Shown here one piece after another: positions 25,360 through 48,949 of a stretch of DNA of 64,000 bases. The stretch comes from a virus (taxonomy: Duplodnaviria; Caudoviricetes), in IMG/VR virus record IMGVR_UViG_3300011116_001007; one strand, written 5' to 3'. The notes under the pieces were generated by a model, which did no database searches, was not told the DNA's origin, and saw only the letters and a list, made by a program, of their open reading frames with translations. Each line of letters begins with the position of its first letter. The first letter of the stretch is position 1. The position numbers and the translations under genes were made by a program.

Positions 25360-25796
25360 GCCCGTTCAACTTTTAAATAACTTAACAATTGCCAACGATA
25401 CTTGCCGTGAGCACTGAGTCGTTCTGCTATAAAGTTGGCGATACCTTGCTCGTTTTCTTCGGTGGCAGCAGCAAAGCAACTGTTGAGAATATCAAGCATC
25501 TGATCATTGTTGGCATGCAGTTCCTCCAGCATGAGTCGAGCACGTGGAATTTTTGTCTGTCCTGCAATCTGTGTGAGTTCTGTGAAACGTTCAAAACTGG
25601 CTGGAGAGTATTCGCCCAGGTAGCGTATGTATTCTGCAGTGGGATCAATGGCCGAATAAGCATCTTCGTAAATGCCCTGAAAGAATGTATGCAGCTCTCC
25701 AAAGTCTGGCCCTTCCACATTCCAGTGAAAACCGTGGGCCTTGATGTAGTAAGCAAAATTACTTGCTAGGAGAATTTTTAAACTGTCTGCGAGCAT
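25356..25796 (-). CDS. dps: Dps/ferritin-like DNA-protection protein
   Basis: HGFHWNVEGPDFGELHTFF..YED..D..AEYIR, HGKYRWQL. Confidence 0.88.
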   Translation of the reverse strand: MLADSLKILLASNFAYYIKAHGFHWNVEGPDFGELHTFFQGIYEDAYSAIDPTAEYIRYLGEYSPASFERFTELTQIAGQTKIPRARLMLEELHANNDQMLDILNSCFAAATEENEQGIANFIAERLSAHGKYRWQLLSYLKVERA

Positions 25797-25983
25797 GCTG
25801 GGTCCTTTTGTATTCTTTTGGAGTATTCGGAGTAGGGTCCGAGTCCGTGATATATTTACCAGAAAGCATGGATCCACCTGATCTTGTTTGCATGCCCATG
25901 CCCATGCTTACTGGTGCTATACTGCCACTTGAAGTGCCGCCTGCACTGGCACCATCTTCCATTATGAATTCTTTGGCTCTCAT
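25759..25983 (-). CDS. Small CTS-motif protein (MRAKEFIME)
   Basis: Start at second Met; Gly/Ser-rich. Confidence 0.55.
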   Translation of the reverse strand: MRAKEFIMEDGASAGGTSSGSIAPVSMGMGMQTRSGGSMLSGKYITDSDPTPNTPKEYKRTQHARRQFKNSPSK

Positions 25984-26459
25984 GGTTTGATCAAAACAGG
26001 TGACCATTCACCTGTTTCCTTATTAAAAACTTCAGCATGGCCGGCATTGACTGCTGTGTCGCTGGGTACTTTATCTACAGGCACACGTACTTTGGCATTA
26101 TCGCTTGCATTTTTCCAGTCTCGTCCAAAATGTCCTTCAGCATCTCCTGAAGACCAAAATTTCTGATCTGGAGACCAACCCGGTGTTTTTCCAGGATTGG
26201 GATTGGCTTGAAAATACCCAGTTGTCTGTGCATGTTGTAGCTCTGCAGGGCTCATGTTTCTGTAAGCATGAGTTATATCCTCAGGTTTTGCAGGCACTCG
26301 TCCAGTAAGCATTGATGAGCTAGTAGGCGGCGTCACAACAATATTTTTAACAGCAGGTTCTATCCTGGTTGCTGCCTTGGCCACAGCCGGTTCACCTGCT
26401 TTAAATGCTTTTGCTAAAAAAGAAGTCAATCCTTCACGGACAAATTCTTGGGCTCGCAT
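25980..26459 (-). CDS. CTS-motif protein (MRAQEFVRE)
   Basis: ORF track; coupled starts/stops. Confidence 0.55.
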   Translation of the reverse strand: MRAQEFVREGLTSFLAKAFKAGEPAVAKAATRIEPAVKNIVVTPPTSSSMLTGRVPAKPEDITHAYRNMSPAELQHAQTTGYFQANPNPGKTPGWSPDQKFWSSGDAEGHFGRDWKNASDNAKVRVPVDKVPSDTAVNAGHAEVFNKETGEWSPVLIKP

Positions 26460-27577
26460 CAGCAGTTCCACTTCCTCAGTGCCAGCGCCTTGCGTGTGGG
26501 TTTGCCATTGGGTTTCTTCATTGGACCGTCCACACCACTCATTCTAGCGCAGAAACTCTTGCGACGTTTGGCTGCTTTTGATCCAGGCTTGAGTTTTGAA
26601 GGCTTGGTGGTCACTGCCATCTGCAAATGACTGCCGGGATGTTCTCTGCGATAGCTGGCAACACCTTTGCGATTCAATCCGCCCTTGGCGCTCTTGCCTG
26701 CTTTGCGTCGCCAAGCAGCAGTTTCGCGAACAATCTGTTCATCTGTCACTGTGTCAAATGCATCTTCGGTAAGTCCACGTTCGGCCATGGCCTGTTCAAA
26801 ATCATCAAATATCTCATGAGCTTCCTCCAAGCTGCAGATGCTTTCTGCAGGATTGATGCTTCTGTAACCCAGTGAGTATTGTTCTACTTCTTCGGGATGT
26901 CGTGCTTGCTTGTCTTGCATGGTTTTCAACTGTGTGCGTGGGTTGAGTGTTTTAACTTTTCTGTTGGGATTTTGTTTGACATCACGGCGAGCATCCGCCA
27001 CACCGGCCGCATGCCAATGATTGTTTTCCGCCACACCTTGCTCTTCCACTCGGCCAGCATTGTGTGCTTTCCATGCTGTGGCAAAAGCAATAGATTTTTC
27101 TTGAGGAGTCAGCTTGCCATCCCGGGCATAACCCTGTTTAATGTGTTTGACCATGCGTTCGGCTTTGGCGCCTGGAGGGGCAACTTCAGCCACATCGCGC
27201 ATCAAATGATTGGCATCGCCGGACTTTTTCCATGCATCCCACATGGCTCGGCCGGCTGGCAATTGATTTCTGCTTGGCACAATGGTGTTGCCCAGGGCTC
27301 GCACATAGGCATAGATGTTACGTGCTAGACCTTGACCTTGATATTCAGGACGGAAACTGGTGATCAAGGATACCACGCCTGCTTTGCTTGGTTTGAATTT
27401 GGCAAGACCTGCTTGTTGAAAGTTGTCATCCAGCACTTTGACTGTGAGCACTGGCTTGCCGTATTCTTCTTCCACCGTGGCCCGATATGTCAACCCGTCA
27501 AAAATTTGTGTGTCATTAAATGCTGGATTAAAACAATCTGGATTGATTGCTTCTGTAATAAATTCTTTTGATCTCAT
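26459..27577 (-). CDS. CTS-motif modular protein: GNAT-like domain plus basic C-terminal (DUF6321-like) module
   Basis: MRSKEFITE; PEYQGQGLARNIY..QLPAGRAMW GNAT-like motif; AAWRRKAGK..GGLN..RRKSFCARM..KWNC. Confidence 0.6.
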   Translation of the reverse strand: MRSKEFITEAINPDCFNPAFNDTQIFDGLTYRATVEEEYGKPVLTVKVLDDNFQQAGLAKFKPSKAGVVSLITSFRPEYQGQGLARNIYAYVRALGNTIVPSRNQLPAGRAMWDAWKKSGDANHLMRDVAEVAPPGAKAERMVKHIKQGYARDGKLTPQEKSIAFATAWKAHNAGRVEEQGVAENNHWHAAGVADARRDVKQNPNRKVKTLNPRTQLKTMQDKQARHPEEVEQYSLGYRSINPAESICSLEEAHEIFDDFEQAMAERGLTEDAFDTVTDEQIVRETAAWRRKAGKSAKGGLNRKGVASYRREHPGSHLQMAVTTKPSKLKPGSKAAKRRKSFCARMSGVDGPMKKPNGKPTRKALALRKWNC

Positions 27578-33099: not shown

Positions 33100-35085
33100 T
33101 TATTTTTTGCGGATGCCAGCTAAATTTTGCATGCGATTGATATCTTCGTTAAAATGCTGTGATTGCATTTTGGCCAGTTCGGCTGCAGGGACATTCTTTT
33201 GAAATGTTGTTGTGGGTGTACCATTCACATCCTGCTTGTGCATGTAATCTCCGGTGCCGGTCGCAGGATTTGTCGCTATAGTAACATCGCTGTAGTTACG
33301 GTTGGCCTGACCGTTTTTGGCTGCGGTGGTATCACGTGAGATTGTGCTTATGTTTGTGTTTAGATCTGGGCGAGTAGGCGGCGTTGCCTGTTTGTAAGAA
33401 TTGGTTGGTGCATGGTATTGCATCGTGGAGCCATCCTGCATGGGCATGGTTGCACTGCCCCATTTGAATCCGTCATCCATGGTGTCACCCGTGTCAGTTT
33501 CTTTTACTGAAGTTTTCCTTGGCTGACTGGCAGGTGTTCCGGCATTATATCCACCTTGACGATATCGATTCGCAATACCTGACAAGGTATCTCCTTTGTC
33601 AACCACAGCAAAAGTACCATTGGGCAGTTTGATTTGCTGCCCAGGATAGATACGATCAGGATTGGCTATTTTATTTGCTTGAGCTATGTCTTGCCACAAT
33701 GGTGCTGTTGTTTTTGATGCGGTTGTACCACCGGCCGCCGGTGCATTTTGTTTTGCTGCCCATGCTCTAGCACGATCTATTGTGGCTTGATCAATGCGAC
33801 CTTTACTTCCACCAGTGATTTCGCCATTATCACCGGCACCGTTGCCCATGGTCATGCTCATACGCACTGGCTGTGTTTTACCAGTGGATGATACTGCGTT
33901 GCCTGCTGGCACTGAGTTAGCTGCTGGTTCAGACTGGCGGTACGCTGGATTTATTACATATTGCCACGTAGTGCCGGCAGGCAGTCTGTTAGGATTGCTT
34001 GGGTCAGCTGCTGCACCAGATGCACCATCTCCAGCTTTTTTGCTATACTCGCCATTGACTTGCCCTGCTGGCAATATCACACTTGGCGGTGGGTATTCTG
34101 TGTTACTATTACTGCCGCCTGTGTTGGGTACTGAAAATTCTTCGCCATTGGCACCCTTATAAACGGTTGGCGCCGCAAATGGGTCTGGTAGATTGTTCAT
34201 CTTTGTTTGCCAACGGTTGATGTGGTTTCTTACGGCTGCTTCTTCTTCACTGTCCAGCGGTTTTATTTCCTGACCAGGCTTGAGGTTTTTGCCAAAGCGG
34301 TCCCAATTTTTCATGATATCCGGGCCATCATCGGTGTTGTTGGACATCGACCCAGCAACATCAGCAGGAGAAGGATAAGCATCGGCGGTTTCCATGGGCT
34401 GCATCATGTTATCATAATTGGCATTGGGGTTGGCTGTTGCTGGGCGTGTGTCTAGTCTAGGAGTTTCTTTGCCAGTTCCTGTCGCTGGCCTGCTGTCTAA
34501 GTAATTGGGTTTTTGTGTCAACGGTGTTGTGTGCATTTGGGGCGTTTCATTGCCTGTTCCTGTTGCCACTGGATGATTGATATAATCAGTTTCTGCTCGA
34601 CCTACCAGCTTTGTGAGTGCGTTGAGATTTTTTGTAAGTTCAGGATTTTGAAATGCTTTCATGCCTTTGTTAAAAGTTCCAGACACATCCACATCGCCTT
34701 TGGGATTCAAAGCCATTGAATTTTTAACTGCGGCCGGATCAGGAGCAGCCATGCCGCGTTCAGCAGCAGTTGAATACATGTTCTTGACATAATCTGTAGT
34801 GGGCATTGATCCTAGACTGCCAGGTGGCAACTCATTGGCGTCTTCCGCTAAATTCTGCTGACCATACATGTCAAGAATTTGATCAACGTAAAAACTATAA
34901 AAGCCGCGGCGGCCGTTGTATTCTCTGTCTCCCAACACTCGCTTTAGTGCCAGCACAGCGTCACTCACTGTTGGACCTTGCATCACTCGTAATGCGTCAG
35001 TGACAAGTGAGTCAACTCTTTGCGAGTTTTCTGTCACATTGCGTGCAGATCTTTTGGGGTTGGTAAAAAAATCGTTGATGATCAT
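33100..35085 (-). CDS. Modular LysM-containing probable virion protein
   Basis: IANPDRIYPGQQIKLP..VVDKGDTLSGIA; low-complexity linkers; C-terminal RMQNLAGI; late promoter upstream. Confidence 0.6.
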   Translation of the reverse strand: MIINDFFTNPKRSARNVTENSQRVDSLVTDALRVMQGPTVSDAVLALKRVLGDREYNGRRGFYSFYVDQILDMYGQQNLAEDANELPPGSLGSMPTTDYVKNMYSTAAERGMAAPDPAAVKNSMALNPKGDVDVSGTFNKGMKAFQNPELTKNLNALTKLVGRAETDYINHPVATGTGNETPQMHTTPLTQKPNYLDSRPATGTGKETPRLDTRPATANPNANYDNMMQPMETADAYPSPADVAGSMSNNTDDGPDIMKNWDRFGKNLKPGQEIKPLDSEEEAAVRNHINRWQTKMNNLPDPFAAPTVYKGANGEEFSVPNTGGSNSNTEYPPPSVILPAGQVNGEYSKKAGDGASGAAADPSNPNRLPAGTTWQYVINPAYRQSEPAANSVPAGNAVSSTGKTQPVRMSMTMGNGAGDNGEITGGSKGRIDQATIDRARAWAAKQNAPAAGGTTASKTTAPLWQDIAQANKIANPDRIYPGQQIKLPNGTFAVVDKGDTLSGIANRYRQGGYNAGTPASQPRKTSVKETDTGDTMDDGFKWGSATMPMQDGSTMQYHAPTNSYKQATPPTRPDLNTNISTISRDTTAAKNGQANRNYSDVTIATNPATGTGDYMHKQDVNGTPTTTFQKNVPAAELAKMQSQHFNEDINRMQNLAGIRKK

Positions 35086-37705: not shown

Positions 37706-38365
37706 TCAATACACAGGTTGTTTGACCAGTTGATTCACAAAGCTCAGCAGCAATTGATGATGGCGCCGTTCATGCCAGTGCGGTTTCATCCAACTCCAGC
37801 CGTTGTACCAGAACTTTTCACTTTCGGGGTGACAGCCTATCAGGCCTATGCGGCCCTGCATGATGGCCATGGCATCGCCATTGGCGTATGTGGCAACAGT
37901 TTTGAATCGTTTTGGATTGCCTACCAACGCACACCCGTCATAAAAAAACATCTTTTCTTCGCGGCCGCGCCAGGTCACATCAAGTCCTTTGGCATGCGGC
38001 CGTCGAGTGTCTGTGCCGGGACGCCGGATGTATTGTGCGGCATCCACACCGTCAAGTATATCAAAGTAATGACTGCCGGCCCAGTAAGCACCCATGCAGA
38101 TGCCCAGATAGTAACCGCCTTTTTGCACGAAGTCTATCACTCGATCGCCATTGTTGCGGAACAAGCGATAGAAGCTGTCTGAGTCTCCTATGCCGCCAGG
38201 AAACGCCACGATGTCCACGTCATCAAAGAAACAATCTTCCAAGACATTTTTTCCAAACATCTTGAAGTTATACTGTGGTGACAACGCCTGCATCATACCA
38301 TTGACACTTTGCACTGAACATTTGGGATCGGCTACAAAAAGTGCTATGGTTTTGCGGACTGTCAT
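37706..38365 (-). CDS. BPL-N / class I glutamine amidotransferase-like protein
   Basis: FPGGIGDS, GGYYLGICMGAY nucleophile elbow, GCHPE. Confidence 0.75.
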   Translation of the reverse strand: MTVRKTIALFVADPKCSVQSVNGMMQALSPQYNFKMFGKNVLEDCFFDDVDIVAFPGGIGDSDSFYRLFRNNGDRVIDFVQKGGYYLGICMGAYWAGSHYFDILDGVDAAQYIRRPGTDTRRPHAKGLDVTWRGREEKMFFYDGCALVGNPKRFKTVATYANGDAMAIMQGRIGLIGCHPESEKFWYNGWSWMKPHWHERRHHQLLLSFVNQLVKQPVY

Positions 38366-38868
38366 GATAGGTCAATGATAGGAATTGGGCCGTCAAATGG
38401 CCTACTGTTTACCACAGTTTTGAGTTTGAACAACATGTTCTGGCTGCTGATACGTCGCATGCCCAAGCCCAGTTGTGTTTCGGGATCATAAGCCCATACT
38501 TGTGTGTTGGGTTCTACCTGTGCCAGCTGATCAGCAATGCCGTTTAATTTCTTTAGACTTTGATCTATGGCATGTGGATTGATACCACGTGTGCGTGTGC
38601 GATCCACAGCATGATCGTCTATTGCCACAGTCAGCTGAGGAAAGTGTAGATTGCCAATTATGGTTTCGTTGGTCTTTTTGCGCTTGCCACTTTTCATGTT
38701 GGCCATCCAGTGGGCTAGTTGTGCTGCCCTGCCCGAGTGATTTTTAGCAAATTTGCGTAAGTTGCTCACACTGGATTTAGTGGGCACATGATGGCGTTTT
38801 GAATCACCTTTGTCTTCAGGATGTCGACCATCAGCAAAGTTTTCGGTAATAAATTCTCTTGCTCGCAT
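38362..38868 (-). CDS. CTS-motif two-module protein (MRAREFITE)
   Basis: ENFADG..WMANMKSGK basic module, then TNE junction and a second domain; TAAATA upstream. Confidence 0.6.
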   Translation of the reverse strand: MRAREFITENFADGRHPEDKGDSKRHHVPTKSSVSNLRKFAKNHSGRAAQLAHWMANMKSGKRKKTNETIIGNLHFPQLTVAIDDHAVDRTRTRGINPHAIDQSLKKLNGIADQLAQVEPNTQVWAYDPETQLGLGMRRISSQNMLFKLKTVVNSRPFDGPIPIIDLS

Positions 38869-38911
38869 ATGGGTATTTAGCGTGTGGTCAATCAGCCGAA
38901 TTAGAGCTATT

Positions 38912-41900
38912 TTACTGGGCTTGACGCACACTGTAGTCAGCAGGGTTGAGTGTTATGCCAGTGTCGTTGCTGGTTTGTTGTACCCATTGACGACCTTCTG
39001 CCCAGGCCGCAGCTTGTGTGGCAGCATCCAACGGGAACATGCTCACTCCATCACTACGTCGATACACTTCCCACTGGGGCGCGGCTGCTGGCTGCGATGT
39101 ATACTGTGCAACATCTGGCTCAATGTCTTGCACTCCAGGAATTGGAGTAGGTGTCCGACGGTTAGCAGCATGTTCTGCATCAGCGGCCATGCTGGCTGCT
39201 GCTATTGCATTATAGCGTTGACGAGCTAGATCCAAGGTGCTGCCTGGGATGGGTGCTCGACGAACACCAAACGCTGCTGTGGCCTGCTGCGAATTTAATG
39301 TATGCGGACCCATGCTTCTATATTGATTCAAGAATTCTAAAGCTGCTGCATCATTGGCCGCTTGGAATGTTTCTAAGGGGCTGCTGTCCTCTCGGTCGTA
39401 AATCTCGTAAGTGACTGTGTCTGCATCAGCGGGTACTTCAGCAGGCACAGGAACCACTTCAAACGGTCCGCGAGCAGCCATATTAAGTGGCGGTAGCCAA
39501 TGGGCTTGCACCCATGCTAGTGCTGCTGCGTTGGCATCTGCTTGCACATTTCTATTCCAGAAAGTATGCACAACATCTCCGTCGTCGGCAACAATGTTCC
39601 ATTGCACACTACCGGCTTCGGGTGCTGATGCAGGTGCTGCAAACTGCGTGGTATCCACAATCATGTAATCAGCAGCATTTGCATTTTCTCGAGCAGCCCA
39701 GGCCGACATCACAGAACGAAGTTGGGCTTGGCTATAGCCGTCCCCTAGGGTAAATCTAAACAAGTAGTCTGGTGCAGGTCCTGATGTTCCGCTGCCGTAG
39801 CTGTAGACTCGAGGATCATCACGTCGCACTATGGCCAGTTGACCGTTGGGGTCATTGGGTCTGCCACGGCCTTGGGGATGTGATGCTGTGGTACTGGCTC
39901 CTGCTGCGGGCTCATCCAGTCTGGTCACAGTCAGTGCATCATCATGAAATCTCCAGTTGGGCTGCTGTTTTATGGCCTGCTTCTTGGCATCTACAGGGTC
40001 AGCGGCAATCACTTCTACCACGCCGCCACCCAATTCAGGCTTCAATGACACTCTCCATCGATGACCATTCACAATGTCCTCACCAGACTTCTTGGCCTTG
40101 CGGTCGGCTTGTGCTTGCCGCACAAAACTCTTTAGCGCAGCAGCAGGTAGTTCGCCTGCGGCATACTTGGCAAATACAGCCAGGGGATCTTTTTCATCTT
40201 TGGGTGCCAATATCTTGTATAGTTTTTTCAGATACTCTTGTCTATACGCTTCAGGATCTAATGCAGCACTCATGGCCACTGTGAATCTCATGAGAGTGTT
40301 TTCAATCTTGTCAAAGTTGTCGTCCAACCAGTCTCCGCCGGGGCTACGAAACTCAATGTGCCCATCCTTGGTGTTGATACTGGTGTATTTTTCTGTTGAG
40401 CCCGAGTGTATGGCTTTACTAGCCAAAGCACCCATGTGCCCTTTCATCTTGTCCAACAAATATTTTGCTTCATAAGGCCGTTGACGCACATGATCACGCA
40501 CTTTGCCCATGGCACTCTTGGCGTAGGAGTTACCTGCCCGCCCAAACTGCTCTAACACATATTCGTCGCCCATCAGCAGGGCCAGCTTTACAAAATCCAG
40601 TCGATTCTGGCTGTAATTGGGCACTGAGATATTGATGTGTAGCCCAGTAGAATCATTGGTGTAGCAGCCCATGCGATTGGCCCAGGCTTTGACCTTGTTC
40701 AAGTCACTCATGATGTCATCTATAGGCAATGGTGGGCTCACAAACTCCAGGCCTGAATCTTGTGGGTCATCCGGTTCCAAACTGCCATCGGGTTCTACCA
40801 CATAGAAGTTTTTGCCCGGCGCAGGACGCTCCACACTGCTGGAATGATACCCTGAAGATGCCTTTACAGGACGACCCACCGCCCGACTGAAATCGTCTGC
40901 TATATCTTCAACGCTGGTGCCACCAGCAAGACTGCTGGTATAGTGTGGCCAATGTATAATTCCATTATAACGATGATAGATATCACTCATGTGGCCCAGG
41001 CCAGAGTCACCCAACCATTCTTCAAAATTGTCATTTTCGTAGAACTCATCGCGGGACTGTTCCAATGCATCATCATAGAAAGGTTGTAGTTGTTCAGTAA
41101 CAATCATGTCCGCAGCCAGTTGATATTCTTTTTTACCAAGCTCGTCCTCTGATTCTAGATCCAACAACTCTCTGATGCTATCTTCGTCAACATTTTCTCG
41201 GATGTAATCGTAGATGAATGTTTTAGCATCTGAATCCCAGCGAGTATCAAACTGTTCCACTTGCCAGTCGCCGTAATCATCCAGCATGCGATCAACCAAC
41301 TCCTGGGCATTTCTGCGACCGTTGTAGTCACCATCATAGAAAAAATCTTGAATATCTCTAGGGCTGCTGGCACGTTCATCAGAATCAAAGTCGGGTTCTA
41401 GTTCATCATCTTCGGATGAAGTGTTGGGCACAATCATTTCAAATTCCATACCAGCCAGGGCACCTGTCTTGGCTGCTTCTCGACGCAGATTCTTGCCACC
41501 CATGTTGATTTCAAACAGATCCTGATCTTCAAACAATCTCAATTCTTGTCGCAGGCTTGCTACCAATTTATTTTCAGCCACATTGTAGGTAGGGTCAGTT
41601 TTTTGACGCTTCATGCCTTTGGGCTGGTTAGGATCAACAGGATCAATGTCAGTGGTTGATAACCCTAATTTTTCTAACTTATTGATGTACTTGTGTTCAG
41701 TATCTTCGTCACCAAAGCTCACAATAGTGCTGGGTGGCCCTTTGCCAAATTCGCTGGGATCAGCACGATCCAGATTGGCAATGTGCTTGCCCAACTTGTA
41801 CCAGTCATACACGTCACTCACATCTACTCGTACTGTGCCTTTGGGCATGGTGGGTTTGAATTCAGGCCCCAATGGCTCATTGAGGTCACGATACTTGCCC

Positions 41901-43300
41901 TGACCCTGCGACGGTTGCGGCATAGAACTTTCACGTAGATTCACAGACTTGATCAACAACTTGGGCTCTCCGTTGGGCCCTGTTTGCAATGCCATCTTGT
42001 TGGCTTCTCGGCCTGTTTGTCCCGGACGCACATCCACACTCAAGGCCATGGCATACTGTGGCATGGCCGCTTCCTTTTTGTTCTTGGGAATGTATCCTGA
42101 CGCACCTTCGCCCAGGGATTCTGCGGCAAAGTATTCAGGATGTGACGCAGCAAAATCTCGCATGATGATGCCAGCTCTGGCATTGGCATCATTTTCGTAT
42201 TCACTGCCAGTTTCTCCAGCATCCAGTGGCAGGCCACCTTGCGTCTGATGTTGATCACAATGCACCAGTTCATGTGCTATGGTGCGGAACACATCCAGGA
42301 TATGGCGATTGGGCAAGCTCACATTGAGAGTGTTTGATTCTGGCTCATAACGTCCAAAGCTGTGATTGCCTTCACTCCATTCAGGATCTGTGTGTATGAC
42401 TATTTTGGGAGCAGGATCAATGCCCAGTTCCGTGACCACATGCTGGATAAAATCATTCACTGCCTGATTGTCCTCGTCGCCTTTTTCACTCAAGAACATT
42501 CGGGTACTGGCACTGACCCCATCTGGAGTTATTGTGACATCTTCTGCGATGCGATGGCCAAACCCATAGGTCACACGACCTTTTTCTCTGTTCTTTTCCA
42601 CTAGACTCATGGCATGATCTTGTGCTGCCACGTGAGCATCTTTCAGCAGTCGGATGCAGCCTTGATCGCGCAGCACTTTGAACGTGATGTTTTCGCAACC
42701 AAATTCCCCATGCTGTTCCAGCCCAATTTGGCGCATGGCTTTGATCTTGTTCCACAGGGTGGACATCATATCAGCATTGCCAGACTCAACAGCAGCGTGT
42801 ATTCTAGCGTCTAGATCAGCTGCTTTGTCACGCACACATGAGTCATCAATCTGTGCTCGTCGGCGGCGCGGCACTTGTATCCATTTGCCATCCTTGACTG
42901 AATAAATGCCCTGACTCACATGCGGCTGGCCTGCAGGTTGCACATACAATTCCACATCAGCACCGCCAATGGTCAAATTGTGTTCGTCGTTGTATTGGTA
43001 TTTTTTAGCGTTGAACAGTTCCTGATACACAGGATCATCAGGCATGTCCACTATCAAATGTAGATCAATGTCGCTGTGGTCAGTATAGTTGTATGCTGCA
43101 TTTGACCCCGACAGTGTGATGTCTTGCACTCGGAGATTGTCCACTCCCAAGAATTCACGGAAGTCTTCTGCAATTGCCAGCAGTTTGTCACGAACATCTG
43201 GCAGCAGATGTTCATTTGAACCCCACAACCGACGGTTAAGTCGATTATGGTATTTTACAGTGTCGCTCAGGCGGAATTGATCTAGTTCATTGAAGTTCAT
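38912..43300 (-). CDS. 1462-aa polyvalent protein: Pol-beta-type nucleotidyltransferase, HExxH zincin, amidoligase (COOH-NH2 ligase), C-terminal repeats
   Basis: GSNAAYNYTDHSDIDLH; AHELVH; GMEFEM..EPDGSL..GLEFVSPP..STGLHINIS..IEFRSPGG. Confidence 0.75.
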   Translation of the reverse strand: MNFNELDQFRLSDTVKYHNRLNRRLWGSNEHLLPDVRDKLLAIAEDFREFLGVDNLRVQDITLSGSNAAYNYTDHSDIDLHLIVDMPDDPVYQELFNAKKYQYNDEHNLTIGGADVELYVQPAGQPHVSQGIYSVKDGKWIQVPRRRRAQIDDSCVRDKAADLDARIHAAVESGNADMMSTLWNKIKAMRQIGLEQHGEFGCENITFKVLRDQGCIRLLKDAHVAAQDHAMSLVEKNREKGRVTYGFGHRIAEDVTITPDGVSASTRMFLSEKGDEDNQAVNDFIQHVVTELGIDPAPKIVIHTDPEWSEGNHSFGRYEPESNTLNVSLPNRHILDVFRTIAHELVHCDQHQTQGGLPLDAGETGSEYENDANARAGIIMRDFAASHPEYFAAESLGEGASGYIPKNKKEAAMPQYAMALSVDVRPGQTGREANKMALQTGPNGEPKLLIKSVNLRESSMPQPSQGQGKYRDLNEPLGPEFKPTMPKGTVRVDVSDVYDWYKLGKHIANLDRADPSEFGKGPPSTIVSFGDEDTEHKYINKLEKLGLSTTDIDPVDPNQPKGMKRQKTDPTYNVAENKLVASLRQELRLFEDQDLFEINMGGKNLRREAAKTGALAGMEFEMIVPNTSSEDDELEPDFDSDERASSPRDIQDFFYDGDYNGRRNAQELVDRMLDDYGDWQVEQFDTRWDSDAKTFIYDYIRENVDEDSIRELLDLESEDELGKKEYQLAADMIVTEQLQPFYDDALEQSRDEFYENDNFEEWLGDSGLGHMSDIYHRYNGIIHWPHYTSSLAGGTSVEDIADDFSRAVGRPVKASSGYHSSSVERPAPGKNFYVVEPDGSLEPDDPQDSGLEFVSPPLPIDDIMSDLNKVKAWANRMGCYTNDSTGLHINISVPNYSQNRLDFVKLALLMGDEYVLEQFGRAGNSYAKSAMGKVRDHVRQRPYEAKYLLDKMKGHMGALASKAIHSGSTEKYTSINTKDGHIEFRSPGGDWLDDNFDKIENTLMRFTVAMSAALDPEAYRQEYLKKLYKILAPKDEKDPLAVFAKYAAGELPAAALKSFVRQAQADRKAKKSGEDIVNGHRWRVSLKPELGGGVVEVIAADPVDAKKQAIKQQPNWRFHDDALTVTRLDEPAAGASTTASHPQGRGRPNDPNGQLAIVRRDDPRVYSYGSGTSGPAPDYLFRFTLGDGYSQAQLRSVMSAWAARENANAADYMIVDTTQFAAPASAPEAGSVQWNIVADDGDVVHTFWNRNVQADANAAALAWVQAHWLPPLNMAARGPFEVVPVPAEVPADADTVTYEIYDREDSSPLETFQAANDAAALEFLNQYRSMGPHTLNSQQATAAFGVRRAPIPGSTLDLARQRYNAIAAASMAADAEHAANRRTPTPIPGVQDIEPDVAQYTSQPAAAPQWEVYRRSDGVSMFPLDAATQAAAWAEGRQWVQQTSNDTGITLNPADYSVRQAQ

Positions 43301-43324
43301 ACGAACTATATTTACCGCAAACCT

Positions 43325-44251
43325 TTAGGCTTGAGTTTCTGCTGCTTCTTCAACTACAGCTTCCACAGGCTCGCTAGACGCCATGATTTCAGCCACGGGT
43401 TCTGCTGCCATCAGCTCAGGAGTGACTGCATGTGCCAGCGACGGTGCAGGTTCCGCAGCAGGTGCTGGTTGAATAGCTTTGAGATCCTGATACAACTTGT
43501 CCTGTGTGGTAAAATCAAATGTGTATGTGCCTGTGTGCTTGAGCAACACACGATTGTCTACAAAGATCTGACCGCCTAGATCGCGCCAGTTTTCACAGAA
43601 TGTCCAGTCTTCGGAGTAGTAGCGACCTTCGCGAACTGCTGTGTCAAAGTAGGTTTTCATGTAAGGATCCAGTTCAGCAGGCATGCCAATGTCGTTGGCA
43701 AAGTTACGTACCGCAGGATGTGCATTCAGCTTGTCAAACACATCGCGCTTGATCAGCATGAATCCTGTGCCAGTTTTGCTAACTTCGGTAAGATGACCCA
43801 CTGGTTCCATTCCAGGAATACCGTTGACACACCATTTCACAGGCAGGCTTTTCATTGGGTACAAACCGCCAATCACATCTTTCTGGCTGTCTAGCAACAC
43901 CAACAGGTGCCAAGGTTCCCAGCCAATGTCGGCGTCAATAAACATCAAGTGGGTGGATTCTTTTGTGTGCAAGAACTTGGCAGTGAGTGTGTTTCTGGCT
44001 CTGCTGATCAAGCTCTCATTGGTCATGGTTTCCACAGTCCATTCAAGACCCAATTGTCTTGCGGTGTTGGCCCATTTGATATAACTCATGAATGTGCTTT
44101 CGGTCAACTGACCGCCATAGCAAGGCATCATGATGTGTACTCTTGTGGTACGCAGATAATCTATGTTGACTTGAACAGTTTGTTGTGCAGTTGCAGCGGG
44201 ATCGCTAGGTGGGGTTGTGGTGGGTTGGGCGTCAGCCATTGGGTTCTCCAT
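43325..44251 (-). CDS. GT-A fold glycosyltransferase-like protein
   Basis: HIMMPCYGG, ESLISRARN, HLMFIDADIGW, GTGFMLI, SEDWTFC. Confidence 0.7.
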   Translation of the reverse strand: MENPMADAQPTTTPPSDPAATAQQTVQVNIDYLRTTRVHIMMPCYGGQLTESTFMSYIKWANTARQLGLEWTVETMTNESLISRARNTLTAKFLHTKESTHLMFIDADIGWEPWHLLVLLDSQKDVIGGLYPMKSLPVKWCVNGIPGMEPVGHLTEVSKTGTGFMLIKRDVFDKLNAHPAVRNFANDIGMPAELDPYMKTYFDTAVREGRYYSEDWTFCENWRDLGGQIFVDNRVLLKHTGTYTFDFTTQDKLYQDLKAIQPAPAAEPAPSLAHAVTPELMAAEPVAEIMASSEPVEAVVEEAAETQA

Positions 44252-46049: not shown

Positions 46050-46691
46050 TTATTTAGCCTGTATTGGCACAGTCTTGCGAACAATTCCCGGCAGAACGAG
46101 ATTCAACATCAGCGCATCATTGATGTCATGATGATCGATAAAATTCCAGTCATTGGTGTAAAAATGCTTGTAATGAAACATCCGCCCGTCATCGCCAATC
46201 AATCGAGACTGCAAGCCCGGCGTGATCCTAAAATAGTCCGGGCGGTTGGCAAAAAATTGTATAAATCTATCGCGCTCAATGTCGTTGAAATATTTGCCTC
46301 TGAGATAAGTTCTGTATTGATGTTGTGTTTTTTCAAGCACAACCACATCCTTTGCTCGATCAACCACACATTGATTGTACTTGGCTGTTCTTGTTATGTA
46401 GGACAAGGCCGCCAAGTCTTTTAACAGTGTTAAATTATTGGTGTAAACATATACCCAACTGCCGTAGATGATAGATTTATGTGCATCTTTGTCGGCTGCC
46501 AACAGCATGGCCACTTCGCCCACATCAGAATACTCGGGCATACGCTCCACAAAGTCTTTTATATCTTTTGTATTGGAATATTTGAATAATCTACGCCATC
46601 TGCCAACTTCTTCCAATCTAAAATCTATGGCATACTCGTACTGATCATAGTACAAACTGCCTCGGGACACGTATTTGAAGTCAATCATCAA
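46050..46691 (-). CDS. Hypothetical protein
   Basis: 213 aa, coupled to clpA stop. Confidence 0.55.
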   Translation of the reverse strand: MMIDFKYVSRGSLYYDQYEYAIDFRLEEVGRWRRLFKYSNTKDIKDFVERMPEYSDVGEVAMLLAADKDAHKSIIYGSWVYVYTNNLTLLKDLAALSYITRTAKYNQCVVDRAKDVVVLEKTQHQYRTYLRGKYFNDIERDRFIQFFANRPDYFRITPGLQSRLIGDDGRMFHYKHFYTNDWNFIDHHDINDALMLNLVLPGIVRKTVPIQAK

Positions 46692-48949
46692 GTGCCTGCT
46701 GCTGGGAATCTAATGATGCCATCTACATCTACCACAGGAATCACATGTGCTTGAGTTTCAAAATGCACTTGATCATCCACTAGTGTTGCAGTGATATCAC
46801 AATCGGTCAGTCGATCAAACAGGATCCGCTTGCTCAATGGCACACGGATCAACTGATCAATCTTGCGGCTTAGGGGTCTTGCACCCATTTTGTTATCATA
46901 GCCTTTTTCAGCCAGGTAATCAATCACGGGCTCTGTCAACACCAAGCGTATGCGTTTGCTTTCCAAACTGGTCTTGAGCTCATCCACAAATTTAAGCACA
47001 ATCTTTTTAATGGCCAAAGTATCCAGTTTCACAAACTTACACACTTGATCAATACGATTACGCATTTCGGGCTTGAAGAACTCTTTCATGGCACGGTCTT
47101 CTTCTCCGGTCTTTTCTTGTGAGCCAAAGCCGATGGCATTGCTTTCGCTGTCCCTGGAACCCAGATTTGAAGTCATGATAATGATGCAGTTCTTCACATT
47201 GGCCTTTTTGCCATTGCTGCTGGTCAACACACCTTCGTCCAGCATCTGCAGCAAGATGTTGCTGACATCTGGATGTGCCTTTTCAATTTCGTCAAACAAG
47301 ATCACAGAAAAGGGATTCTTGCTGATGTCGGCGATCAACTTGCCGCCGCCTATGTTGCCGTCCTCAAATCCCACATAGCCTGGAGGTGCACCAATCAAGC
47401 CTGACACACTGTGACGTTCTTGATACTCACTCATGTCGTATTTCAACAATGGCATGTCCAGGTGCTGGCTCAACAGTCTGGCCAATTCAGTTTTGCCTGT
47501 GCCAGTGGGCCCCGTAAACAAGAAACTGGCCATGGGCCGTCGTTCGTTGCCAATACCTGAGAAGTTGATGTACACACGATCCAACACAGCATCCACCGCA
47601 GCGTCTTGCCCGTAGAGATGTTGTTTGATATTGCTTTCAAGATCCACAATCTTGGCTGATCGCTCATTCTGCAATCGATCTGTGGGCACACCTGTCACAC
47701 GGGCCACTTGTGCTTCAATCAATTCTTTAGTGATGGTCGCGGTGCCTGCATCTCGAACACGTTCTCGGGCACAGGCTGCATCCAACAGATCAATACACTT
47801 GTCAGGATTCTTTCGATCGTGAATGTATCGATTGCCCAGTTCCACAGCAGTGGTCATTGCCGCTGTGTCGATCATGACATTGTGGAATGCTTCCAGTCTG
47901 GGTGAGAGCCCGATCAGGATCTTTTCAGTGGTCGCAGTGTCCGGTTCGTCAATCGACAACCTGTAGAAACGGCGCATGAGAGCACGATCCTTTTCGAAGC
48001 TCTCGTAAAATTCTTCCCAGGTGGTACTGGCCACAACCTTGAGTGTGCCACGTGTGATGGCTGGTTTCAGCATGTTGGCAAAGTCTAGACTGCTTCCCGA
48101 ACTGCCTGCACCTGCACCTTTCATGGTGTGTGCTTCGTCCACAAACAAGATGCAGTTCTTTTTGGCTTCCAAGGCTGCCAGTACCACCTTGAGTTTTTCT
48201 TCAAACTCGCCGCGGTATTTGCTTCCGGCCAGCAAACTACCAATTTCCAAACTCCATACTTCGTAGCCTTTGAGGAACTCAGGCACACGCCCTGCATTGA
48301 TTTCCTGTGCTAGTCCTTCCACAATGCAGGTCTTGCCCACACCAGGATCGCCTACCATGAGCACGTTGGCTTTGAAACGACGTGCCAGCACAGCAATCAT
48401 TTCTTCCAGTTCAGTTGCACGACCAATCAGCGGTTCCAATTGATTGGCAGCGGCCTGTGCAGTGAGACTGGTACAGTATTCGGTCAGTACTTCGTCTGCT
48501 TGATTGGATGTCATTTTGCTGTCTACCTGTGTGTGATTTTTCTGATAGAATTCCACAAACTCAGACTTCTTCATCCCGTACTTGAGCAAAAAGTAGTGTG
48601 CATGGCTGTTGGTTTCGGCCATGATGCTGAGATACACATCCAACAGGTTCATGGCTCTGCGGCCAGTGAACATGACCTGCACGTTGGCTCGATTGAACAC
48701 ACGTTCCAGGCTTTGTGTTTTTTTGGGCTGTACATCACCTGTCTTGACCAGGTTCATCAGACTGTTCAAGTATGCATCCAGCTCTTGATCCAGCATGTCT
48801 ATTTCCACGCCAAACTGTTCAACCAGTCTACGGAAGTGTCCTTGGCGCAGCATGGCCAATAACAAGTGTTCGGTCATCACATATTCGTGACTTTTTTCTT
48901 TAGCTATTTTTACAGCGTTGTCAACAATGCTTTCGATTTCGTGTGCCAT
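46688..48949 (-). CDS. clpA: ClpA-like AAA+ unfoldase
   Basis: Clp-N domain, GDPGVGKT, FVDEAH, GPTGTGKT, FDEIEKAHP, IGF ClpP-docking loop (NAIGFG). Confidence 0.9.
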   Translation of the reverse strand: MAHEIESIVDNAVKIAKEKSHEYVMTEHLLLAMLRQGHFRRLVEQFGVEIDMLDQELDAYLNSLMNLVKTGDVQPKKTQSLERVFNRANVQVMFTGRRAMNLLDVYLSIMAETNSHAHYFLLKYGMKKSEFVEFYQKNHTQVDSKMTSNQADEVLTEYCTSLTAQAAANQLEPLIGRATELEEMIAVLARRFKANVLMVGDPGVGKTCIVEGLAQEINAGRVPEFLKGYEVWSLEIGSLLAGSKYRGEFEEKLKVVLAALEAKKNCILFVDEAHTMKGAGAGSSGSSLDFANMLKPAITRGTLKVVASTTWEEFYESFEKDRALMRRFYRLSIDEPDTATTEKILIGLSPRLEAFHNVMIDTAAMTTAVELGNRYIHDRKNPDKCIDLLDAACARERVRDAGTATITKELIEAQVARVTGVPTDRLQNERSAKIVDLESNIKQHLYGQDAAVDAVLDRVYINFSGIGNERRPMASFLFTGPTGTGKTELARLLSQHLDMPLLKYDMSEYQERHSVSGLIGAPPGYVGFEDGNIGGGKLIADISKNPFSVILFDEIEKAHPDVSNILLQMLDEGVLTSSNGKKANVKNCIIIMTSNLGSRDSESNAIGFGSQEKTGEEDRAMKEFFKPEMRNRIDQVCKFVKLDTLAIKKIVLKFVDELKTSLESKRIRLVLTEPVIDYLAEKGYDNKMGARPLSRKIDQLIRVPLSKRILFDRLTDCDITATLVDDQVHFETQAHVIPVVDVDGIIRFPAAGT

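Follow-up and report, generated by a model that had tools for sequence, protein, structure and literature searches.

Four described systems come closest to the protein considered here, and one of them, the stand-alone amidoligase-domain protein gp196 of Agrobacterium phage Atu_ph07, is taken up further below. The polyvalent proteins delineated by Iyer et al. in 2017 join unrelated enzymes in one chain, in combinatorial architectures around a zincin hub, and are predicted to be delivered together with the DNA (PMC5512222). The internal proteins of phage T4 (IPI, IPII, IPIII and Alt) are single-domain products of separate genes that are trimmed at their ends; the T4 capsid targeting sequence is MKTYQEFIAE (PMC8442874), these ten residues are enough to load a protein into the prohead, cutting after Glu by the gp21 protease is directed by residues 8 and 10, and Alt is cut at both ends (PMC9026906). 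In phages phiKZ (gp175), 201phi2-1 and SPN3US, head-internal proteins are cut multiply after Glu, and the protease is related to gp21 (PMC9026906). Here we analyse a gene whose product has properties in common with each of these. It occupies positions 38912-43300, on the minus strand, of virus record IMGVR_UViG_3300011116_001007, a stretch of 64,000 nucleotides (hereafter "the window"), and its product is a polyprotein with a predicted nucleotidyltransferase (NTase), a predicted zincin metallopeptidase and a predicted amidoligase in one chain. The best supported reading of this polyprotein, which rests on comparative and indirect evidence and which we consider probable, is that it is a late-expressed, head-packaged and protease-processed cargo polyvalent protein of a T4-related jumbo phage.

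The window itself is a piece of an uncultured freshwater jumbo phage related to T4. Sinorhizobium phage Phosso and Atu_ph07, both of them T4-related, Rak2-like jumbo phages, have family-B DNA polymerases with 46-49% identity to the one encoded here. The DNA sequencing runs that contain the sequence are viral, riverine and lake metagenomes (no RNA run is listed).

Modules of the polyprotein

The reading frame is uninterrupted for 1462 codons (1462 amino acids, a chain of 160 kDa), and its translation bears out every motif listed in an earlier note made from the letters of this DNA: LSGS..DIDLH (residues 63-81), RTIAHELVH (340-348), GMEFEM (617-622), EPDGSL (836-841), and likewise LEFVSPP, GLHIN and IEFR. 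The Glu-ending sites that the note had placed between domains (IAE251-253, LGE396-398, VAE574-576, LFE589-591 and LFE595-597), as well as LRE455-457, do lie at module borders, which we defined by BLAST against 120 long relatives in which the units move independently. From the N-terminus, the parts of the protein are:

42542..43300, minus strand: module A, residues 1-253, predicted Pol-beta-type nucleotidyltransferase lobe plus helical lobe
42107..42541, minus strand: module B, residues 254-398, predicted minimal zincin metallopeptidase, ends in LGE398
41930..42106, minus strand: module C, residues 399-457, small conserved unit (ASGYIPKNK...), ends in LRE457
41573..41929, minus strand: module D, residues 458-576, mobile and very conserved unit of ~100 amino acids, ends in NVAE576
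41510..41572, minus strand: junction peptide, residues 577-597, with two LFE sites
40076..41509, minus strand: module E, residues 598-1075, predicted glutamine-synthetase-like amidoligase, Pfam Amidoligase_2 (PF12224)
38915..40075, minus strand: C-terminal region, residues 1076-1462, with three copies of a ~52-amino-acid repeat
39449-39604, 39257-39412 and 38921-39076, minus strand: the three repeat copies, residues 1233-1284, 1297-1348 and 1409-1460, respectively

The three enzyme assignments of the earlier note (NTase, zincin and amidoligase) stand when conserved motifs, folds and Pfam matches are considered. The catalytic residues are intact; when 16-21 diverse relatives are aligned, their motifs do not vary. 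Domain-wise structure prediction, run for modules A and B, recovered NTase and zincin folds.

In module A, residues G65, S66, D77, D79 and E117 are invariant among 16 diverse aligned relatives. Its Pfam score for NTP_transf_2 (16 bits) is below the cut-off of 21, with Polbeta and NTP_transf_7 weaker still, so that membership of the Pol-beta superfamily rests on motif and fold. For the predicted model (pLDDT 73), Foldseek ranks the AAD(9)/AadA aminoglycoside adenylyltransferases first, with E values from 3e-4 to 1e-3 and a probability of 0.97; CD-NTases, FAM46/TENT5 and the MntA antitoxin come next. VIA realignment of the NTase lobe gives Z values of 6.0-6.8 over ~103 residues to 2rff, FAM46 and AadA; these are middling values that we accept only jointly with the motif. 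On motif and model together, module A is a Pol-beta superfamily nucleotidyltransferase with the GS and DxD elements and a third carboxylate. PDB-sequence and profile searches with modules A, B and E returned nothing significant, the best match being the minimal NTase 2rff at E 0.76. Stand-alone homologues of module A are present in freshwater and marine cyanophages, Maribacter phages and Lak phages. Atu_ph07 gp195 (L001 7133-8125), which is annotated as a nucleotidyltransferase (T4 GC1542) and adjoins the amidoligase gene gp196 discussed below, was tried as a further relative and rejected, as profile comparison shows no detectable relationship.

Module B carries H343-E344-x-x-H347 and E369, all invariant in 18 relatives, and its model (pLDDT 84) has three strands and two C-terminal helices. 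Foldseek matches it to abylysin, jannalysin, selecase, IrrE/PprI, lethal factor, SPRTN, Wss1, CapP and ArdC, and in a VIA search of 48,161 solved chains, which is independent of Foldseek, nearly all of the best 50 are hydrolases of the zincin fold (Z-scores of 9.1 for YbeY, 8.6 for SPRTN and 8.2 for Wss1). No Pfam peptidase family scores above threshold; the HExxH motif, the downstream Glu helix and the three-stranded sheet are all found, and judged by motif and model module B is a zincin-like metallopeptidase.

Module E gives a Pfam Amidoligase_2 match over residues 794-990 (31.5 bits against a cut-off of 22, E 2e-7), and E619, E621, E836, D838, E852, H888, N890, R921, E983 and R985 are invariant in 21 relatives; these acidic, His and Arg columns are those expected of a glutamine-synthetase-like ligase. 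By score and by conserved residues, module E is assigned to Amidoligase_2. The E-x-E strand (617-622) precedes the part matched by the Pfam hidden Markov model (HMM), lies outside it, matches no Pfam family when searched alone, and is followed by an acidic insert of ~170 amino acids. It is probably the first strand of the family, set apart by the insert; stand-alone amidoligase homologues in Atu_ph07 and in Ralstonia phage RsoM2USA have the same strand and insert, which is why we take the insert to be characteristic of the family.

The "two small modules" of the earlier note, C (399-457) and D (458-576), are real units. D is placed differently in most relatives; C also shifts as one unit among them. 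Module D is 66-84% identical across proteins that are otherwise divergent, and shorter stand-alone proteins pair it with the zincin in either order. In relatives P0200-P0244, some of these zincin/D proteins are fused to a cytidylyltransferase-like HIGH-motif domain (PF01467) that resembles the gene two upstream of the polyprotein in the window. A complex prediction of the zincin with module D, run without controls, scored 0.02 and 0.06. Each of the 120 relatives has 1-3 copies of the ~52-amino-acid repeat of the C-terminal region; a BLAST self-comparison of the C-terminus did not reveal the repeats, and an iterated HMM did. Searched one at a time, modules C and D, the acidic insert of module E and the C-terminal region match no Pfam family, and an ESM Atlas feature search gave no usable match for module D or the C-terminal region.

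Shuffling at glutamate joints and capsid-targeting-like leaders

The polyprotein belongs to a large family: 879 matching proteins of 804-2559 amino acids have a core in common, on contigs of up to 365 kb, and 1351 additional shorter proteins bear subsets of the modules. The family is common in viromes from rivers and lakes. With the gene as query, Megablast found no match in 50,697 phage records. Relatives have extra modules that include cytidine/dCMP deaminase (PF00383), GNAT, GH19 chitinase with LysM, PG_binding_1, SET, ParB, NUDIX, and M48 or U49 peptidase domains, and the zincin is present in every long relative. The polyvalent character proposed in the earlier note, with NTase, zincin and Amidoligase_2 in one open reading frame, is thus upheld at the level of sequence: at least two unrelated catalytic domains lie in one chain, and the relatives are combinatorial around a zincin hub. 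A Pol-beta NTase, and the GNAT, ParB and lysozyme-type modules of the relatives, are further likenesses to the proteins of Iyer et al. (PMC5512222). That study differs in mentioning no amidoligase domain, and its NTases are from firmicute conjugative elements and fused to ArdC-N; it describes neither Glu joints that match a T4-type head-protease site nor modules that occur in some cases as single genes with a leader and in others fused into a chain (PMC5512222). A 2021 survey of jumbo phages by the same group does not describe the polyprotein family.

The places at which relatives part company are informative. Similarity breaks directly after the conserved L[EG]E398, LRE457 and NV[DA]E576; at least five different modules follow LRE457, and many different sequences follow NV[DA]E576. 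Joints in other relatives (a slash marks the joint) include VAE/SREITKL, MAE/NFADG, NVDE/NFADG, SVNE/NFADG, SIDE/NFADG, VTE/GKV, IAE/EEE, VSE/SIS and MSE/ASGYIP. After similar contexts were collapsed, [LIVMF]xE lies within 2 residues of 128 of the 559 distinct junctions, compared with 46 +/- 6.6 expected from random positions in the same proteins (500 trials, maximum 65), a 2.8-fold excess. Many more junctions end in Glu without the hydrophobic residue, and the junctions of the repeat region lack the hydrophobic-x-Glu motif. In relative P0077, residues ~447-480, directly after an LRE joint, read ..SEIDRRGVLKAIGAGAAAAAVPGVAQA and resemble a twin-arginine signal peptide that cleavage would expose; the window's protein has no equivalent of this stretch.

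Sequences like the T4 capsid targeting sequence occur on other genes of the same phage. Four window genes start with MR[AS]xEF[IV]xE, namely MRSKEFITE (27577), MRAQEFVRE (26459), MRAKEFIME (25983) and MRAREFITE (38868). The last of these is just downstream of the polyprotein:

38362..38868, minus strand: NFADG gene, 168 amino acids, MRAREFITE/NFADG.., with TAAATA at 38874-38879, 5 nt upstream

Its start is likely the ATG at 38868, although the ORF finder had proposed a GTG. The gene keeps its position after the polyprotein in 43 loci, and in many relatives the mature NFADG module, which is basic, is instead fused to the polyprotein C-terminus behind an x-x-E. The other three genes are consecutive (25759-27577, minus strand; 372, 159 and 74 amino acids); the 372-amino-acid product ends in DUF6321, and its mature start, AINPDCFNP, resembles a module inside relative P0016 (..ETINPDCFDP).

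Stand-alone versions of the polyprotein's own modules have comparable leaders. Zincin-plus-D proteins on other contigs start MLLRELLSE, MFLRELVSE, MNIRELISE, MKVIQILRE or MRARDILPE, and stand-alone amidoligases have leaders of 9-13 residues that end in LSE or LTE and align with LFE597. The whole junction peptide, residues 577-597, aligns with these N-terminal leaders, ..DLFE/INMGGK here corresponding to ..KKLTE/LKMNSS in Atu_ph07 gp196 and ..KLSE/LKMDMS in RsoM2USA_26. We infer that cargo genes, each with its leader, were fused in frame to give the chain, and that these old leaders are now internal cutting sites. Some joints resemble fossil gene starts, for example ..DIVPE-MNESLRE/YKMPQP.

The likeness to the T4 internal proteins thus comprises leaders like MKTYQEFIAE on neighbouring and stand-alone modules, a predicted cut after hydrophobic-x-Glu, a gp21-type protease in related genomes (below), and enzymatic cargo like Alt (PMC9026906). 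The difference is that T4 cargo proteins are single-domain and trimmed only at their ends, whereas here up to six or more modules are chained with internal sites. The phiKZ-like phages, in which internal cutting after Glu is also found, are of another lineage and use another motif, and their cleaved proteins are inner-body or ejection proteins rather than shuffled enzyme chains.

The chain might also be packaged but cut by its own zincin instead of by a prohead protease. Autoproteolytic release by embedded peptidases of the zincin type has been proposed for polyvalent proteins such as P1 DdrB (Iyer et al. 2017, PMC5512222), and it would agree with the intact HExxH..E site and with the presence of a zincin in all long family members. 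It does not explain why Glu-ending leaders are found on genes that encode no zincin (those starting at 38868, 27577, 26459 and 25983, and the amidoligase genes of Atu_ph07 and RsoM2USA), and the motif fits the specificity of T4 gp21, a homologue of which is encoded by related genomes. We also know of no zincin with a P1-Glu specificity of this kind, which counts further against self-cutting, and we regard it as improbable.

Head protease, promoter motif and a virion homologue

Peptidase_S77 (gp21-type) or a close homologue is found in five of the six related records that are at least 90% complete, and none was found in the two less complete related records searched. In one of the related genomes, G002, a T4-like block contains a 293-amino-acid acidic protein (with no assigned family), the protease (262536-263171), a scaffold-like protein and a gp23-like capsid gene, with the portal just upstream, and the capsid-like protein has an LKE site just before its conserved core.

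The earlier note had placed the gene behind a TAAATA promoter, and this late-type motif proves to be conserved, standing before the ATG in all 29 distinct related loci:

43309..43314, minus strand: TAAATA motif, 8 nt before the ATG, late-promoter-like, resembles the core of T4's TATAAATA

The distance from the motif to the start ranges over 10-27 nt in those 29 loci, 28 of which fall at 10-16 nt, while the surrounding spacer diverges. In G002, [GA]TAAATA is found upstream of the portal gene, the head-protease operon, and the baseplate and tape-measure-like genes. The window has 10 GTAAATA sites where 6 are expected, mostly just before starts. The exact T4 late promoter TATAAATA was also considered and rejected: the window has a single copy, as chance alone would give, and enrichment near starts is confined to the shorter [GA]TAAATA. 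Many ATGs (minus-strand starts at 35085, 37664, 38868, 43300, 44251, 45061, 46043 and 52127) have TAAATA only 4-14 nt before them, and no Shine-Dalgarno sequence intervenes; if TAAATA is a T4-type late -10 element then the mRNAs would be leaderless or nearly so.

The most direct link to a virion comes from Atu_ph07, which encodes a gp21 homologue (gp204). Its protein gp196, annotated as hypothetical and of 57.94 kDa, was detected in virions by electrospray tandem mass spectrometry (ESI-MS/MS) with 14 peptides and 30.2% coverage (supplement, PMC6102473). We assign gp196 to AUZ94978.1 by position and mass; this protein passes Pfam Amidoligase_2 and is 31% identical to module E over 275 residues (E 7e-31). 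Like module E it has the E-x-E strand followed by an acidic insert, and it has a short leader ending in LTE; unlike the polyprotein it is a single module of 500 amino acids, without NTase, zincin or repeats. Its gene adjoins gp197 and the portal gene gp198 (PMC6102473). In RsoM2USA only ten major virion bands were identified, and ORF26 is not among these.

Together, the leaders, the gp21-like protease and the virion homologue are indirect evidence in favour of packaging in the head and of cleavage there by a prohead protease of the T4 type. Several observations weigh on the other side. The polyprotein itself starts MNFNELDQF (family consensus MNIxELDSY), which has M-x-[IF]-x-E-L in common with leaders such as MNIRELISE and so corresponds to the first half of a leader, but the second Glu is absent, a further difference from T4 cargo. 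Only about one quarter of the distinct junctions have the motif within 2 residues, and short x-x-E sequences are common in any case, with 33 [LIVMFA]xE in the 1462-amino-acid protein. The A/B joint at IAE253 is the least conserved, most subgroups having an x-x-E a few residues from this position. There is no head protease gene within the 64-kb window, and the near-complete relative G001 gave no protease match. The Atu_ph07 virion list was obtained from phage purified with polyethylene glycol and includes a topoisomerase subunit (PMC6102473), so carry-over is possible and the detection of gp196 is supportive, not conclusive. TAAATA also precedes window genes that are not obviously late (the metallophosphoesterase and the cytidylyltransferase-like gene), for which reason we call it late-promoter-like and not proven late. 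Tblastn against the 50,697 cultured-phage records found single-module matches only, none covering 80%. Finally, the stand-alone NTase homologue of cyanophage S-CRM01 lies among replication genes rather than structural ones.

Gene neighbourhood and the possible role of the polyprotein

This last point also suits a different view of the polyprotein, that it is an uncut and unpackaged cytoplasmic multi-enzyme whose Glu joints are ordinary linkers and which perhaps acts in a biosynthetic or modification pathway with its neighbours; the candidate partners are the cytidylyltransferase-like, GATase-like BPL_N, glycosyltransferase and phosphoesterase genes. The gene does sit amid metabolic-type genes, away from head genes. 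In about 40 loci the upstream order is conserved: a 261-amino-acid gene, a ClpA/B-like ATPase, two small genes, a cytidylyltransferase-like gene and a phrog_1574 gene, followed by the polyprotein and then the NFADG gene, and the ATPase/cytidylyltransferase-like/phrog_1574 block could be read as the partners of such an enzyme. In the window this block runs from 46688-48949 (minus strand) through 43325-44251 (minus strand); the ATPase is a two-ring AAA+ protein (phrog_4871), and the phrog_1574 protein is 70-85% identical across loci. Amidoligase and amidotransferase genes also accompany thymidine-hypermodification clusters in other phages (PMC8989533), which lends the idea of a pathway enzyme some precedent.

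The downstream genes speak differently. At 37706-38365 (minus strand) the window encodes a 219-amino-acid protein that matches BPL_N, the amidotransferase-like N-terminal domain of biotin-protein ligase (E 3e-11). This BPL_N-type gene, the metallophosphoesterase and the GT2 glycosyltransferase gene are found in only the nearest relative, that is, in 1 of 47 loci, which argues against a conserved pathway with the polyprotein, and a conserved amidoligase-GATase pairing was rejected for the same reason. Moreover, the swapping of chitinase plus LysM, SET, ParB, deaminase and NUDIX modules would be unexpected for a pathway enzyme, while the leaders on stand-alone modules and the virion protein gp196 point to the capsid. 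We therefore think a cytoplasmic multi-enzyme unlikely.

The link of amidoligase-type genes to base hypermodification (PMC8989533) bears on another alternative as well, in which the substrates of the amidoligase and NTase, at or ahead of packaging, would be the DNA or virion proteins of the phage itself instead of host targets. The basic NFADG module and a location in the head would bring the enzymes beside the DNA. No DNA-modification gene of the kind of a kinase, aGPT-Pplase or DpdA is fused or syntenic in the 47 loci examined, however, and the chitinase plus LysM, M48 and U49 modules of relatives suit entry or attack on the host better, so that self-modification seems to us very unlikely.

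We return to the reading of the polyprotein as packaged cargo. It would be made late from a TAAATA-type promoter and taken into the prohead, where a gp21-type prohead protease would cut it after Glu in [LIV]-x-E at about residues 253, 398, 457, 576 and 591/597, and possibly at more sites. The products would be an NTase of ~28 kDa, a minimal zincin of ~16 kDa, modules C and D, an ATP-dependent amidoligase and a C-terminal piece with the repeats. These pieces would remain in the head and enter the next host cell with the DNA, where, early in infection, they presumably act on components of the host by modifying or cleaving them. For this particular protein we infer packaging, cleavage, ejection into the host and any host target from its relatives and from the systems it resembles. 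The more specific proposal of the earlier note, a "writer/eraser set" by which host targets would gain or lose nucleotidyl or peptide tags, has no support yet.

It is possible, although here we are tentative, that freshwater T4-related jumbo phages run a modular "cargo polyprotein" system of which the present member would deliver the first known virion-borne amidoligase. With similar reserve, the leader or joint in such a system may serve at once as capsid-loading tag, head-protease site and point of module recombination. If this is true, a single late gene would bring a set of enzymes into the host with the DNA, before phage gene expression, and phages would re-assort that set by recombining at the joints, which would account for the high variability of polyvalent proteins. 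The paradigm of the T4 internal proteins would be widened from single small proteins to shuffled multi-enzyme chains, and the leader plus Glu joint would provide a rule for finding injected effectors in uncultured jumbo phages. It would also imply an undescribed early modification of the host, for example one in which a host protein or metabolite receives an amide tag at the cost of ATP. The amidoligase and the ANT-like NTase would thereby be candidate sources of new chemistry for anti-defence or host takeover.

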